The position numbers were made by a program, and so were the translations under genes. From a virus (taxonomy: Duplodnaviria; Heunggongvirae; Uroviricota; Caudoviricetes), in IMG/VR virus record IMGVR_UViG_2713896909_000009, positions 32,673 through 96,672 of that record: a stretch of DNA of 64,000 nucleotides; one strand, written 5' to 3'. Below are positions 14,309 to 40,133 of the stretch, in pieces. The notes under the pieces are model-generated. The model was given only the letters and a program-made list of their open reading frames with translations, was not told the DNA's origin and ran no database searches. Numbering within the stretch: position 1 is the stretch's first letter; each line of letters starts with the position of its first letter.

Positions 14309-14384
14309 TGGTGGCCCCTACCGGACTCGAACCGGTGACCGTGCGATTATGAGTCGCCAGCTCTAACCACTGAGCTAAAGGGCC
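14309..14384 (-). tRNA. tRNA-Ile2 (anticodon CAU, lysidine type) or tRNA-Met
   Basis: 76-nt cloverleaf on minus strand: GGCCCTT acceptor, loop CTCATAA, TTCGAGT T-loop, CCA encoded; anticodon arm matches E. coli ileX. Confidence 0.85.
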
Positions 14385-15093: not shown

Positions 15094-15234
15094 TGGTTAT
15101 CCCTCAATAAAAGTGACATATTTATTAGATTGCGGTGCCGGGTGCCTCCCGGTGACGTTAACCAGTTAACAATTAACGCCGGAATGTTTAATCATCAAGG
15201 AGGATTGTTTTAACTGTTCCGCGTGCGCTTAGCC

Positions 15235-15329
15235 GCATTCACCACAACGGAAAGAGCATTTATGGCTCGCATCGCGGGAAAAAGCCCACGGTAGAGAGTC
15301 GAACTCTACAAATACTCTTACCTGTTGTG
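15235..15329. repeat. dispersed repeat unit 1 (conserved flanks forming a long terminal stem)
   Basis: Left flank GCATTCACCACAACGGaAAGAG, right flank CTCTTACCTGTTGTG; variable interior with internal hairpin GTAGAG-AGTCGAA-CTCTAC. Confidence 0.6.
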
Positions 15330-16618: not shown

Positions 16619-16694
16619 TGGCGATGGTGGGTGGATTCGAACCACCGACCAGTTAGTTAACAGCCAACTGCTCTAACCGCTGAGCTACACCATC
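16619..16694 (-). tRNA. tRNA-Asn (anticodon GUU)
   Basis: 76-nt cloverleaf on minus strand: GATGGTG acceptor, anticodon loop CTGTTAA, T-loop TTCGAAT, CCA encoded. Confidence 0.85.
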
Positions 16695-16978: not shown

Positions 16979-17365
16979 CCTCCCCGTTCCCTAATACACA
17001 GACGGGGACACTCTGCGGTCGATTTTTTGACGGGGGACGACTCATACCCCGTGGCGTCTGGCTTCTTAGGCCGCAGCCATCATCAGATCATCGTTTGCAT
17101 TTACTTTAATGGTCAGTTTCTAAACCGCCGCAAAGTCGCTAACCATGACGAAAACCCTGAAAAAACGCCCACCCGAAGATGGGCAAACAGGATGTAAGCT
17201 CGTTACGCATTTCGGTATTGCCACTTAGGCGTATGGTCAACCTGGCAACTCGGCGTCATGAGGGGGAAGGAGTCACTACCCCGCCATACTTGCCGCCGCG
17301 CCTGTCGCGGCTAACAGCTAAATCGCTCTATAAATCACGATTCATTGAAACCATATTACACTAAT

Positions 17366-17382
17366 GAATTTATTAGAGCAAT
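17366..17382. promoter_or_regulatory. C1 operator-like site
   Basis: gAATTTATTAGAGCAAT, about 16 of 17; positioned to control leftward transcription into the tRNA array. Confidence 0.5.
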
Positions 17383-20300
17383 ATAGCAATAACGTCATGA
17401 GCTACACCACGAGTGTTCCCCTTACAAGACACAGAACGTCTGGCAAAAAGAGGTTCCACTCTGAAGCCACTGTCTTGGTAAAGCTCCCTGATGTTTGGCG
17501 CACCACTATTAGTAATGAGGATCTTTGCACCTCGGCGATGAGCATCCATTAGCAGAGATACCAGGCGTTTTTGCTCTTCAAACTTAAAGTCATGACCGGA
17601 ATAGTTTGTGAACCCCTCTGTATTGGGGAGCGGTTCATACGGAGGATCGCAAAAGATGACATCTCCTTCTCCGGCAGCTTCAATCACCGCTGAAAAATCA
17701 CCACATACAAACTCAGAACGCCCTTCAGCACCGAGGAAGGCTTCCATCTCCTGTAATGGGAAATACGGAGTTTTATACTTCCCATAACCAACATTAAACT
17801 CACCGGCCTGGTTGTAACGCGTCAATCCGTTAAAACAATGTCGGTTCAGGAACAAAAACGCTGCTGCACGATGTAAATCATCATAGGCTTGTTTGTTAAA
17901 CGCATTCCGTACTGCCAGGTATCCTTCCTGTGTGTTGTAGTCCTGGAAAAACCGATGCGCCAGAGTGATAAGTGAATGTCCCTCACGTTGCAGAGTCCTG
18001 TAAAAGTTAATCAGGTCAGCATTCACATCATTTAGCAGATTTTCTTGATATCCGGCATTTATGAAAACAGCTCCGCCACCAACGAAAGGCTCGATCAGGC
18101 GCTTTCCGTCAGGTAAATGCCTAAAGATTTGTTCAAGAACACCAAATTTTCCGCCGACCCATTTAAATATGGGACGGTCAAATTCTGCCGTTAGCTTAAC
18201 TCTCCGTTCTGTTGCTTCATGATTTTTTGCCTGCTGATATGCAGCCTTAATAATCCGCTCACCAATCCATCGCATTACTGGTATCGCCATGCTATTGCCG
18301 ATCGCTTTGTAACGCGGTCCGTCAGCTGCAAGCATCGCGGCCTCTTCTTCGCTTAAATCTGGATAGTGATTGCGAAGGTATGCCAGTTCATCTGAAGTAA
18401 CTTTTTTACGCTTTTCCGTCGGGATCAACGTATGCCCATCAGGAAAACCTTGCAGTCTTTCACATTCGACAGGGGTAAGACGGCGGACAGCTACTGCTGC
18501 GTTTCCTACGTCATAGCAAACGGCTGTTGTATTTTTGGCCATTAAAGATGGTGAAGTATTCTTAGTTGCAGCATGTTGTGTACCGCTCATACGTTCAGGA
18601 AAAGCCAATGTAACAAGATGCTCATGGCTTTCTTGCTCACGTGCCCGCAATGTACCATGCCCTTCTGACCAAAAACCTGCTCCTGTGCTGCTAAAAACTG
18701 CAAGGTCAGTGGCATCTTTAAAGTCTCTCGCCTTTACTGTCGATGCGGTTTCATCGCCAATATATTCCCCAAATGCCGCCATCCTGAAAGCGTTTACGGC
18801 TTTCGTCGATTTCATACCGGGGGTAATGTCAGCGTGTAGGCATGGATTTAGGCTTTCGCCACTGATTGCAGCGCCATTTGCAATAATGGCGGAAGCGATT
18901 TCCTTCTTTTTTCGGCTCGGCGCAATATTCCGGCGCACGCCTTCGAACTCAAAAAGTACCGTTGCGGGATCGAGGTCTGTTCGAGCACTTGCGACAACAA
19001 ACACACGTCGGCGTCGTTGTGCCACTCCGAAGTATTGGGCATCAAGGATTCTCCAGGCCACCTTTCGCTGCGGTCCATAAATACAACCACACTGCGGCCA
19101 CTTTGGAGCATGGCAACCGGTTTTGCCATCCCACCGCCAGAACGCGTTACTTTTTCCTGATTCAGGTCGATCACCTGGTTCAAATGGCGCATCTTCTCCA
19201 GCCAATCCGGCAAGGAAACATCCGAAGGCGTTATCTGCCGATGACAAGACTCCTGGGACATTTTCCCAGACGATAACGGCTGGTTTGAGAAATGACTCAG
19301 CCCGTTTGTCGTCAATTGCATTTGCAAGCTCCACATACTTTAAAGTTAGCGCGCCACGCTCATCATCAAGCCCACCACGTAATCCCGCGATACTGAATGC
19401 CTGACAGTTATGGACCACCGCACCATTGAGGATATAGGAATGATCACCTTCGACTTCTATGTTGTATACAGTATCTAGGCCTACCGATTTAAACTCTTTG
19501 ACTGTTCGTAAAAGCATTCCATGAGCCAATCTTGATTTACGTGACAATTTCTGCGGGCAGATTGTTACCTGATAATAATTCCGTTGATTTACCACGCGAT
19601 CCTCGATCACTTTTTTGGGCTCAACTTCAATAAAGCTGACCGAAGAAACATAACCACAAGTCTGTGACACCCCCGCAACGCCCCAAGCAAGCGCAGGACT
19701 AACACTATTAATTCTAAATCCCGCTTTACCACTTGGTGTCCCATCAGTATCAAGATAGCCTTGTAAAAACACATGACGCAATGGATGCGACATCACCCAT
19801 GCAGGGATACGCTTAGCATGGCTTAACTCGCCAAAATGTTCATTAAGCCAATTGGCATAACACGTATCATTCAAGGTTACTTTGATGCTCCCTCGGATTT
19901 CTCTTGCCACGGAAAATATGTTTTCTGGTATGCGACAATGAAACTTTCTCAATTTCTGGCAATTTATGCAAAAAACAACCGCCTTCTTAGATTTACCTCT
20001 CCATCTCCTAATATATCCATCGCCAACATAAGCGCCCGCAAGATACATAGCCTGTTCTTCAGACAAGAACCGAGAACAAATATCTGGAGATGCAATATTG
20101 AAATTAGTTAGAGCGCACCATTGATATCCTGGCATATCACATGCTGCTCGCCATTCCGGTTCAGACAACAACTCTCTCTTAAAATATGTGCCATTTTTCC
20201 GGGTGTTTTGGGCTTTCCACCGAACAGCCAGGAAGGGATGGTCATTGGTTGTTCTTATACCTAAAGGCTGCCCAACGGCATTAAGTAACCCCGTATTAGC

Positions 20301-20660
20301 TATTTTTGAACCAACTCTTTTTACTTGTTGTAACCGCCCGAGATGACTGACTACGTAATCGCCAGGGCAAACATCTTCTATTGGTTTATAACCATTTTTA
20401 CAAAGAACCATATGCCCCGCGGTAAAACATGGTGTTCCCCCGACGAGCACGTCAGGGGATTCTATTTCCCCAGCCAGGACTTTTTTGGCAAGTTTAGTCA
20501 TGTCGCCAAGGTTGGCGACATGGGGCCAGCGGTGCGCAAGAACGGCCGATGGAAAAGACTCGATTTCAGCAAACCACGCCGGACGCATACCCAACGGTTC
20601 CCAGGCAATACTCGCGGCTTCAATTCCACTGCAAACAGATCCATAGCACAGCTCTTTCAC
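17373..20660 (-). CDS. dmt: bifunctional DNA methyltransferase: C5-cytosine MTase (intein-interrupted) fused to Dam-type N6-adenine MTase
   Basis: C5 motifs [41 protein letters not shown]; Dam motifs [19 protein letters not shown]; 1095 aa including a 341-aa intein. Confidence 0.85.
19407..20429 (-). mobile_element. intein with LAGLIDADG homing-endonuclease domain, inserted at the catalytic Cys codon of the C5-MTase
   Basis: Starts CFTAGHMVL (block A), TTNDHPF (block B), [11 protein letters not shown] and [10 protein letters not shown], ends VVHN followed by Cys+1; excision restores GGTPCQAF. Confidence 0.75.
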
Positions 20661-21562
20661 TGCTTAGCCTCTCCACCAAGGGCATTTACCAGAGCATCAA
20701 CCAGGCACGAAATTTCACTGGTCAACAGGAAGAAATCTGCGTCCAGTCGCTGCGCAACATCTTCACTATCAATATCAGAGTTCTGCTCAAGCAATTCATC
20801 CGCAAATTTGACGCTGGTAAGGCTGAAGTTATGGTCCAGTGTAAATTTAATGCGGTTCTGCCAGTCGAGTGCCAACTTAGTGACGAGCTTGCCAGCTTCC
20901 AGGTGTGTGGAAATTTCATCGCTTCCCAAATCCTGCTTTTTCACTCGGGCAATACCGCCATCCTCAAGCACTGCCTTAAGTTCTGCCGCATCCCCCATTT
21001 GAAATCCCTGTGGAGCACTACCATCACGTACCCAGTCGGTCAGCGTTAATTCAATGGGATTTTCAACACTTAGGGGAACAACAGGAAGAGAACCCAGAGA
21101 CTTACGCATAAGTGCGAGCATATCCTCTGCCTGCCGCGCGCAGGCATTGATATAGATACGTTTAGTTGAACGATCGTAGATCGCCTGGATAACAGAAAAC
21201 TTTGAAAAAGCCCGTGGCAGAAGAGAATGCAGAACTTCGTCTTTCAGGGAATCCTTTTCTGTTTTCTTCAGTTTACGCGCTTGTTCTTGCTCAAGTTTTT
21301 CAATTTTTTCTTGAATAGCTCGCTGGATAACCGGCAGGGGAAGAATTTTTGTTTCGCGCTTTGCTTCAACAAGGATAAAACCATTTCCATGCATAGCGAT
21401 AACTTCGGAATTATCACCAAATGGCGATACAAAACCGAACTTGGCCATATCCTGACTACCGCATGGCGTGAAAAGGATCATTTTCTTTTTATCTTCTAAG
21501 TCGGTCAGATCCGCCTCACGAGAAAGTTTATAAATAGTAATGTTTTTCCAGTGCTTAAACAT
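20657..21562 (-). CDS. rdgC: recombination-associated protein RdgC
   Basis: Near-colinear match to E. coli RdgC as I recall it ([53 protein letters not shown]); start at internal ATG 21562; 4-nt overlap with dmt start. Confidence 0.85.
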
Positions 21563-21833
21563 GTTGTAACCCTTGAATATCAACCACAGAAAGCTCGTCT
21601 TTGTAGAAAAAGGCCAAGTTGTGGCCCCCCCTCGTTTGAGCGTATGAGCTGGGACCAATTTCGTTCTTCCAGACAAATGGCTTCAAATCCGTACGGCGAA
21701 GCATAAAAACGCGATTTGTTCCGCTCTGATTCCCAATGAGGCAAAAGCCTTCTTTCACCTTGATAGCCTGCAAGTTGTCGAGTTCACCGCTGGTTACACG
21801 GCTATCGAACTCCTTGCGGCTTATTAGCTCCAT
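21555..21833 (-). CDS. hypothetical protein
   Basis: ORF upstream of rdgC, start uncertain (track start 21911 overlaps the operator). Confidence 0.3.
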
Positions 21834-21910
21834 CTGCATCTGACGACTCCAAACAAATGCCCATTGAAGGGCGATGGCTGAATGGTACCGAAAACACGAC
21901 ATAAAAAACA

Positions 21911-21927
21911 ATATTTATTAGTGCAAT
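21911..21927. promoter_or_regulatory. C1 operator-like site
   Basis: ATATTTATTAGTGCAAT, about 15 of 17; upstream of the minus-strand rdgC-dmt operon. Confidence 0.45.
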
Positions 21928-32418: not shown

Positions 32419-33234
32419 ATGAGCAAAAACTTTTTTCAATCCGGGGCATTTTTGGGGAATGGACTGTCTCGTTTCGCTTTGAACTCTGATCCTGTGCAGC
32501 TGATGGAGTCTGCCCGAGCAAGCGCCGAACCGCCAACAGATCCGGTTATTAATAATAATCCGGAACCGGCGGCACAGACTAACGATAACGTTCCATCTGC
32601 CCCGGCTCCTGAGCAAATCCTGGAAGGGAAAGACGGTAAAGAATGGACCGTCGAACAGGCGCACCAGATGATTCTGGAAGCTGCAAATCGAAGTGCTATG
32701 CAGAATGCGTTGAGTGATGCGGCCGACGCCGTTTTCGCCTGGGCTGATAGCGGTGATCTGACTTTCGACTCCCTTGATGGTTTCGTTCAGGCTATCGCTG
32801 GTATCTCTGATGACGACGACTCCGAAGTTACAGAAGAACAGGACGATGCCTATAACGAAGCATGGGCAAATGTTGCTGACTTCCTCGCAGCATGCGGTGT
32901 AGATGATGACCTGATCGAAGCACTGGCTGACGATGAAGACGACGACGCAGCTGCTGATGTTGGTGCCTCTATCGCTGGTTTAGATAGCGACGACCGCGAC
33001 GAACTGGAAGCGGCGTTTGTTGTTGCTGGCACTTCTGATGAAATGCTGACTGAAGCATTTAAGAAGGTTGTTCGTAATGGTGAGATCAAACTCATCCGTA
33101 AACGCCTGCGTAAAAAACGTCTGACTGCGGCTCAAAAATCGGCGCTGAAAAAAGCACGCCGTAAAGCCCAGACCGGCGCGGCAAAACTGGCCCGCAAAAA
33201 GTCAATGAAACTGCGCCGTAAGCGCCTCGGCTAA
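32419..33234 (+). CDS. hypothetical protein, acidic body with Lys/Arg-rich C-terminal tail
   Basis: Asp/Glu runs (DDEDDDAAAD) then KRLRKKRLTAAQKSALKKARRKAQ. Confidence 0.5.
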   Translation: MSKNFFQSGAFLGNGLSRFALNSDPVQLMESARASAEPPTDPVINNNPEPAAQTNDNVPSAPAPEQILEGKDGKEWTVEQAHQMILEAANRSAMQNALSDAADAVFAWADSGDLTFDSLDGFVQAIAGISDDDDSEVTEEQDDAYNEAWANVADFLAACGVDDDLIEALADDEDDDAAADVGASIAGLDSDDRDELEAAFVVAGTSDEMLTEAFKKVVRNGEIKLIRKRLRKKRLTAAQKSALKKARRKAQTGAAKLARKKSMKLRRKRLG

Positions 33235-39849: not shown

Positions 39850-39960
39850 TGCTACCCGCTGCTAAACAGGTGGCAGGACGTGACGGGGTTAGCAGACTGG
39901 CGTTAGTGAAACCAGCAGGCCGAAGCCTCCCCATCACGCCCCACCATAATTTGGGCGTAA
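39850..39960 (-). ncRNA. candidate c4 antisense-RNA region (approximate)
   Basis: Between operator and icd; short mutually complementary segments (CTGCTAA / TTAGCAG, CCTGCT / AGCAGG); boundaries not determined. Confidence 0.3.
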
Positions 39961-40133
39961 CGCGGTTTTACGGACACAAAAATACCGCAATATCGGATAT
40001 CTGCGGTTGTCCGCACTAACATTCAGGCTGCTAAACCCGGTCGCAGAATTTGCTACGACGGCGGAACTATAAGCCTGAACGATTAAAAGGTCAATATGAT
40101 GCGAAAAGATAGCATTCGCGACTTAAAAATACA

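Follow-up and report, generated by a model that had tools for sequence, protein, structure and literature searches.

The uhr-hrdC-dmt locus

Our analysis concerns a tightly packed group of genes, uhr, hrdC and dmt, in a 64,000-nucleotide (nt) stretch of DNA from a virus of the class Caudoviricetes (positions 32,673 to 96,672 of IMG/VR record IMGVR_UViG_2713896909_000009), hereafter called the window. Between positions 17373 and 21927, all on the minus strand, the window carries, in order of transcription, an operator, the promoter Pdmt and the genes uhr, hrdC and dmt, and we read this segment as very probably the uhr-hrdC-dmt operon of a P1-type phage-plasmid, expressed early and repressed by C1. 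The homologous place of the P1 GenBank record AF234172 holds Pdmt, the operator Odmt (formerly Op68), uhr (of unknown function), hrdC ("RdgC family") and dmt, the last of them annotated as a bifunctional methyltransferase that acts on N6 of adenine at GATC and perhaps on C5 of cytosine. P1 records and the window have 97.8-98.4% DNA identity across 1.9 kb; a 1.9-kb query over the region matched 18 phage records at 96-98% identity, all of them P1, P7 or P1-like, and a P1-like plasmid of Escherichia albertii (NZ_CP117630.1) is 100% identical to the window in the operon region. The neighbours on the other side also follow the order of the P1 map, with the PAAR-motif gene upfC, upfB, ppfA, mlp, upfA and oriR/repA. 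This near-identity to P1 and to the E. albertii plasmid, together with the P1-map neighbours, indicates that the window comes from a P1-type phage-plasmid. The operon is already known, having stood on the P1 map since 2004, as judged from the AF234172 annotation and from papers citing the P1 genome work, and our finding is a rediscovery of an annotated P1 operon. A preliminary description of this DNA had singled out the segment 20657-21927, which runs precisely from the hrdC stop codon to the 5' end of the operator.

Operator, promoter and regulation

To count as a C1 operator, a site had to be asymmetric and 17 bp long, to match ATTGCTCTAATAAATTT and to overlap a promoter or lie directly against one. 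The site ATTGCACTAATAAATAT at 21911-21927 (minus strand), which the preliminary description had rightly flagged as C1 operator-like, aligns with Odmt of P1, the monovalent C1 repressor operator formerly named Op68. It agrees with the consensus at 15 of 17 positions and with P1 Odmt/Op68 at 16 of 17, and has one base in common with the -35 hexamer of Pdmt. AF234172 annotates Odmt as monovalent and C1-controlled, and its sequence is that of the separately deposited Op68 entry M25413. The single difference from P1 Odmt is a T to A change at position 6, and three further operator-like sites of the window likewise have A at this position. Such sites, counted with at most three mismatches, number 10 in the window, against 0.27 expected from shuffled sequence.

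Pdmt (21882-21911, minus strand) is identical to the 'sigma 70 promoter Pdmt' of AF234172 and consists of a -35 hexamer TTGTTT (21906-21911), an 18-nt spacer and a -10 hexamer TACCAT (21882-21887). In alignments with two P1 records, every base of promoter and operator agrees apart from the one operator substitution. Pdmt is absent from the results of a simple sigma-70 scan because it matches the consensus at only 7 of 12 positions, and we retained it because it is annotated in P1 and exactly conserved. In a Salmonella P1-like lineage, an operator-like sequence, TTTGTTCTAATAAATTA, lies at equal distance from a conserved -10 TACCAT.

The regulation that we propose draws on the AF234172 annotation and on two expression studies of P1. 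Using reverse transcription quantitative PCR, Ronayne et al. found dmt among the C1-controlled genes with a strong and early rise once C1 had been inactivated by heat (PMC4713147), in agreement with the derepression envisaged in the preliminary description, and in RNA sequencing of P1vir hrdC and dmt change together (bioRxiv 10.64898/2025.12.28.696737). The annotated P1 operator and the induction of dmt in P1 lend indirect support to C1 repression at ATTGCACTAATAAATAT in the lysogen. There, C1 sitting on the single 17-bp Odmt, which touches the -35 hexamer of the weak Pdmt, would keep the operon off; upon inactivation of C1, be it by infection, by induction or by Coi, Pdmt would fire.

Overlapping reading frames

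The stop codon of uhr overlaps the start codon of hrdC within ATGTTTAA, an overlap of 8 nt that is also found in P1. At the following junction (...GCAGTGAAAGAG), the hrdC TGA (20659-20657) and the dmt GTG (20660-20658) overlap in the 4-nt GTGA, just as the preliminary description had it and as the P1 record annotates it. A Shine-Dalgarno sequence for dmt, GGAGAGG, is placed within the last codons of hrdC. The architecture of a coupled operon, namely overlapping stop and start codons with a Shine-Dalgarno sequence inside the upstream open reading frame (ORF), is thus present at both ATGTTTAA and GTGA. In the Salmonella lineage ATGTTTAA is unchanged and the hrdC/dmt junction reads TGATG behind the same GGAGAGG, both overlaps being kept despite saturated synonymous divergence. 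Together with the operator-like site of that lineage, these overlaps indicate that operator position and coupling architecture are conserved beyond P1 itself. With every stop codon overlapping the start that follows, the three ORFs would be translated in a coupled series by ribosomes that terminate and restart at the overlaps; true translational coupling of uhr, hrdC and dmt is what we infer from the sequence of the junctions.

The longest mechanically called ORFs begin further upstream, with a TTG at 21676 for hrdC (339 amino acids, aa) and a TTG for uhr (118 aa). We dropped them in favour of the ATG starts because the latter have Shine-Dalgarno sequences and agree with both the P1 annotation and the gene calls in the Salmonella lineage.

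Uhr, a small protein of P1-like elements

The small ORF that the preliminary description had noticed upstream of the RdgC-like gene is uhr (21555-21839, minus strand). It has a GGAG Shine-Dalgarno sequence 7 nt before its ATG and encodes a protein of 94 aa that is 98.9% identical to P1 Uhr. Homologues of Uhr fall into 27 protein clusters, every one of them in P1-like elements. Against the Salmonella lineage, uhr shows 64% identity, with a saturated proportion of synonymous differences (pS 0.81), a proportion of nonsynonymous differences (pN) of 0.23 and a pN/pS of about 0.29. Low pN at saturated pS indicates that uhr, as well as hrdC, is a constrained protein-coding gene.

Searches against Pfam and NCBIfam profiles gave no match for Uhr. 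Its AlphaFold model, for which five sequences were aligned, shows a small alpha/beta fold (predicted local distance difference test score 71.7, predicted template modelling score 0.66), for which Foldseek retrieved nothing from the PDB at E<=0.001; the best sub-threshold matches were an eL38-like ribosomal protein and the FtsH N-domain, with template modelling (TM) scores of about 0.5. The label 'nucleoside triphosphate pyrophosphohydrolase', attached to Uhr in PHROG 2213 and in the RefSeq records of P1, P7 and RCS47, finds no support in these profile and structure searches and looks like an annotation artefact. Several frameshifted variants of Uhr occur among the protein-search matches.

HrdC, a member of the RdgC family

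The gene hrdC (20657-21562, minus strand, with its ATG at 21562) encodes 301 aa and is the RdgC homologue that the preliminary description had recognized. HrdC matches Pfam PF04381 with 326.5 bits (cut-off 25, E=2.1e-97) over positions 3-298 of a profile of 298, as well as NCBIfam NF001462 (375.8 bits, cut-off 330) and NF001464 (286.1 bits, cut-off 227); the E. coli-type equivalog NF001460 scores it at 417.6, under the strict cut-off of 501. It aligns end to end with RdgC of Escherichia coli (2OWL; E=1.1e-112, 61.8% identity) and of Pseudomonas aeruginosa (2OWY; 41.2%).

Briggs et al. mutated ten residues of E. coli RdgC (PMC2965237): R97/K98/K100/K101 of the basic fingertip, which loads the ring onto circular DNA, and two sets that serve ring closure, R118/F120 of the gate and Q212/E218/H222/K227 of the horseshoe interface. 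All ten are identical in HrdC, which answers the question, raised along with the preliminary description, of whether this frame keeps the conserved residues of RdgC. In P. aeruginosa RdgC, Ha et al. lowered the binding of double-stranded DNA by mutating eight basic residues that line the pore (PMC1885664). At the positions that we compared with these (R4, K70, R81, R122, K146, R198, R208 and R252), HrdC is basic in five of eight cases (K, R, K, K, R).

HrdC of the Salmonella P1-like lineage is 79% identical to that of the window, and the comparison of both genes yields a ratio of nonsynonymous to synonymous substitution rates (dN/dS) of about 0.06 (pN 0.125; pS 0.71, near saturation), from which we conclude that hrdC is under strong purifying selection. 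The chromosomal rdgC of E. coli has ~68% DNA identity to hrdC, across two thirds of the gene. P1-type hrdC, searched with at least 80% coverage, is present in 472 of 5426 complete E. coli genomes (about 9%), mostly on plasmids, in 464 PLSDB plasmids and, at the same place, in 18 phage records.

In the P1-like phages ON470615.2 and ON470617.2 hrdC is annotated as two genes (RdgC1/RdgC2), and two PHROG families, 13439 and 21369, each represent one half of HrdC (N- or C-terminal). These split annotations and half-length protein families indicate that frameshifted or split hrdC alleles circulate.

An intein in the dmt methyltransferase gene

The last gene of the operon, dmt (17373-20660, minus strand), encodes a bifunctional C5-cytosine and Dam N6-adenine methyltransferase, with matches to Pfam DNA_methylase and MethyltransfD12 and to the NCBIfam dam family TIGR00571 (252 bits). 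Its product has 1095 aa, versus 754 in reference P1, and is 94% identical to P1 Dmt outside an intein that is absent from reference P1. The intein, of 341 aa and with a LAGLIDADG homing endonuclease (19407-20429, minus strand), appears as a clean insertion in the alignment of dmt and matches the profiles Hint_2, LAGLIDADG_3 and Intein_splicing as well as TIGR01443, for the C-terminal region (28.9 against a cut-off of 15.6). It is inserted between GGTP and CQAFS, in the catalytic PCQ motif IV of C5-methyltransferases, with the catalytic cysteine as its +1 residue. Along the insert we found Cys1, TNDH at 61, LAGLIDADG motifs at 130 and 222 (LQGYLDTDG) and VVHN at 338-341, followed by Cys. These are the features of a class 1 intein with a LAGLIDADG homing endonuclease, and splicing is predicted; similarity to solved inteins is only faint.

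The intein is carried by five phage records, representing three distinct phages, by 133 PLSDB plasmids (from E. coli, E. albertii, Salmonella and Shigella) and by 152 of the 5426 complete E. coli genomes, or about one in three P1-type replicons. Of the 12 nt immediately upstream of the insertion point, 4 differ between the window (20430-20444, minus strand) and dmt codons 73-77 of AF234172, the intein-less P1 having GTCTGGGGTACGCCT and the window GTCGGGGGAACACCA, with G74W among the differences; downstream of the insertion point there is 1 difference in 45 nt. The divergence of the upstream flank could be a co-conversion tract or a homing-resistant allele.

In the cytosine-methylase half, the intein coexists with either of two differing target-recognition regions. 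Dmt residues about 584-725 (window about 18485-18910, minus strand), presumably the target-recognition region, are unrelated in the P1 isolate OP279344. The window and reference P1 stand on one side of this split in the middle region of Dmt and OP279344 on the other, and the window and OP279344 both have the intein. Dmt proteins of the Salmonella lineage measure 774, 845 and 863 aa. The methylase has a mosaic structure.

Annotation pipelines label the entire intein-bearing ORF as a Dam-family methyltransferase, and in the searchable literature we found no description of an intein in P1 dmt or in P1-like cytosine methyltransferases. The dmt intein is seemingly undescribed and more unusual than the operon itself, for which little is at stake and which can be filed as known. 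As a native intein of E. coli and its plasmids, placed in a catalytic motif, it offers a tractable system for conditional splicing or homing.

Other features of the window

At the other end of dmt, two overlapping C1 operator-like sites, at 17355-17371 (plus strand) and 17366-17382 (minus strand), straddle the stop codon (17373). They correspond to the bivalent Oban of P1 (formerly Op72ab) with the ban promoters, and their position implies that the 3' end of dmt also serves to control the operon that follows. Further operator-like sites of the window lie at 1009, 3101, 3150, 5867, 6774, 37984 and 40133. Matches above the Rfam gathering threshold, all on the minus strand, are at 15131-15246, 39866-39951, 40020-40072, 16622-16694 and 14312-14384; they comprise, in turn, STnc100, the C4 antisense RNA with its a1/b1 targets of the P1 immunity region, and two tRNAs. 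The match to STnc100, a small RNA downstream of dmt, is borderline, with 47.3 bits against a cut-off of 47 bits.

RdgC genes in other phages

Phage-borne RdgC is widespread: homologues occur in at least 346 phage records, mostly of Vibrio, Pseudomonas and Klebsiella phages, and P1-like plasmids bring the gene to about 9% of complete E. coli genomes. As a sample of these 346 records, we inspected the gene neighbourhoods of eight RdgC-bearing phages outside P1/P7. Besides phage D6, they were a Nonanavirus, two Vibrio phages, a Klebsiella phage, Pantoea PdC23, Pseudomonas Itty13 and ICP1. In these seven, the RdgC gene has as neighbours helicase loaders, NinB/Orf, RusA, HNH and homing endonucleases, exonucleases and small unknown ORFs, and in none of them did a methyltransferase gene stand beside it. 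Their neighbourhoods suggest that the general association of RdgC is with replication and recombination genes. The arrangement for which the preliminary description had advised looking, rdgC upstream of dmt, was recovered in P1, in the Salmonella P1-like lineage and, with separate methyltransferase genes, in D6, and failed in the seven other phages; on this sample, the link of hrdC to methylation is a trait of the P1/D6 lineage only and may have a historical origin.

Possible role of HrdC

Identity and anatomy of the parts, their conservation and the purifying selection are established here or in the literature, and it is the function of HrdC that calls for interpretation. By homology, HrdC would dimerize into a ring that closes on double-stranded DNA irrespective of sequence. 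Its likeliest role would be to restrain RecA/RecFOR on replicating phage DNA early in lytic growth; Dmt would methylate GATC sites and C5 of cytosine in the new DNA. DNA-ring binding, RecA antagonism and functional cooperation of HrdC with Dmt are predictions. That HrdC tempers RecA/RecFOR on replicating P1 DNA in the early lytic cycle is our best proposal, to which we would give about an even chance. Dmt has a clear separate role, since Dam methylation of the GATC of the pac site is reportedly needed for P1 packaging cleavage, a finding credited to Sternberg and Coulby. P1 also makes the RecA-dependent nuclease Ref (PMC4713147). In a phage that has Ref, an early-operon RecA antagonist would matter and would be a testable part of how host recombination is handled.

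Several observations weigh against the picture of an early, C1-controlled operon that delivers an active RdgC. C1 binding to the variant operator, with its T6 to A change with respect to P1 Odmt, is a prediction, and Pdmt, with its 7 of 12 consensus positions, is weak. Three of the eight pore positions of HrdC are non-basic (Q80, Q144 and S250, with R81 and R143 as neighbours), and at these E. coli RdgC has K81, K146 and R252. The literature that we searched contained no published experiment on the function of HrdC. Moreover, knockdown of uhr, hrdC or dmt by CRISPR interference (CRISPRi) left plaque formation unimpaired (PMC10695390), which implies that the operon is dispensable for lytic growth under laboratory conditions. 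The replacement of three pore basics means that the DNA affinity or specificity of HrdC may differ from those of RdgC, and we take it as a modest hint of altered DNA binding.

Could hrdC simply be a recently captured host gene, or a misassembled host fragment, with no phage-specific role? Its being a full-length homologue of an enterobacterial chromosomal gene and its dispensability under CRISPRi would agree with this, but the ~68% DNA identity to E. coli rdgC in a match that spans two thirds of hrdC, the same locus in 18 phage records, 464 PLSDB plasmids and 472 of 5426 E. coli genomes, and a dN/dS of 0.06 across P1-like lineages speak against it. Divergence, widespread synteny over hundreds of P1-like replicons and purifying selection refute such an origin, which the preliminary description had named as a possible pitfall and to which we leave practically no probability. 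A RexA-like role has been suggested for lambdoid RdgC homologues since RexA shares their fold (PMC11077077); on this reading, HrdC would not modulate recombination but would bind DNA and either bias the choice between lysis and lysogeny or exclude other phages. However, HrdC is 62% identical to a genuine RdgC and keeps all the tested ring-closure and loading residues, whereas RexA is detectable only by structure; in addition, RexA-type exclusion acts in the lysogen, in which hrdC, lying behind a C1-repressed promoter, should be silent. We consider this role highly improbable.

Alternatively, HrdC and Dmt might form a dedicated module. HrdC would load onto new, still unmethylated phage DNA and, up to its modification by Dmt, control whether nucleases or recombinases can reach it; the obligatory co-translation of the two would be explained in this way. 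In its favour, hrdC lies directly upstream of, and overlaps, the methyltransferase gene or genes in P1, in the Salmonella lineage (79% identity) and in D6 (52%, with another upstream context). Nevertheless, all three are relatives within one phage lineage, in which adjacency may be inherited and not selected, a methyltransferase is never a neighbour in the seven other RdgC-bearing phages examined, and a physical or functional interaction of HrdC with Dmt is hypothetical. We regard such a module as unlikely, though less so than a RexA-like function. The corresponding idea of the preliminary description, a module governing recombination or nuclease access, would in essence amount to the conjecture already written in the P1 GenBank annotation. 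More speculative, and in our view very unlikely, HrdC might be a phage-adapted variant, as its three replaced pore basics would allow, that is made in step with Dmt, coats fresh unmethylated P1 DNA and holds off RecA filaments (and hence Ref) or host nucleases until methylation is complete. Intein splicing would then be a possible extra timing step: the cytosine-methylase half would be active only after splicing restores the catalytic PCQ cysteine, and the Dam half might already work in the precursor.

Comparison with known systems

Compared with the RdgC proteins of E. coli and P. aeruginosa, HrdC is encoded by a phage- or plasmid-borne, C1-repressed gene, and its activity is predicted. Lambda RexA is likewise encoded by a phage, forms a dimer that binds DNA non-specifically and shares the folds of the RdgC centre and base domains (PMC11077077), but it has no detectable sequence similarity to HrdC, is produced by the prophage and acts in exclusion together with RexB. 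Unlike RexA, HrdC is a true member of the RdgC family and would be expressed only on de-repression.

In phage D6, the locus of orf65 (NC_050154, 3986-6453) resembles the window in that an RdgC homologue lies upstream of, and overlaps, the first of two methyltransferase genes, one of which encodes a protein similar to the Dam half of P1 Dmt. It differs in the identity of the HrdC homologue (52.5%), in the position of its gene after baseplate genes and not after uhr, and in having the methyltransferases as separate ORFs; no P1-type C1 operator was found within 8.9 kb at this D6 locus. The D6 methyltransferase genes are followed by a glutaminyl-tRNA synthetase gene. The P1 operon itself (AF234172; AAQ14039-AAQ14041) has in common with the window the gene order, the 8-nt and 4-nt overlaps, the promoter hexamers and the operator position, with Uhr and HrdC 98.9% and 98.7% identical, respectively. 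By contrast, the window departs from reference P1 in the T6 to A change of the operator, in the 341-aa intein of Dmt and in Dmt residue 74, which is G in the window and W in P1.

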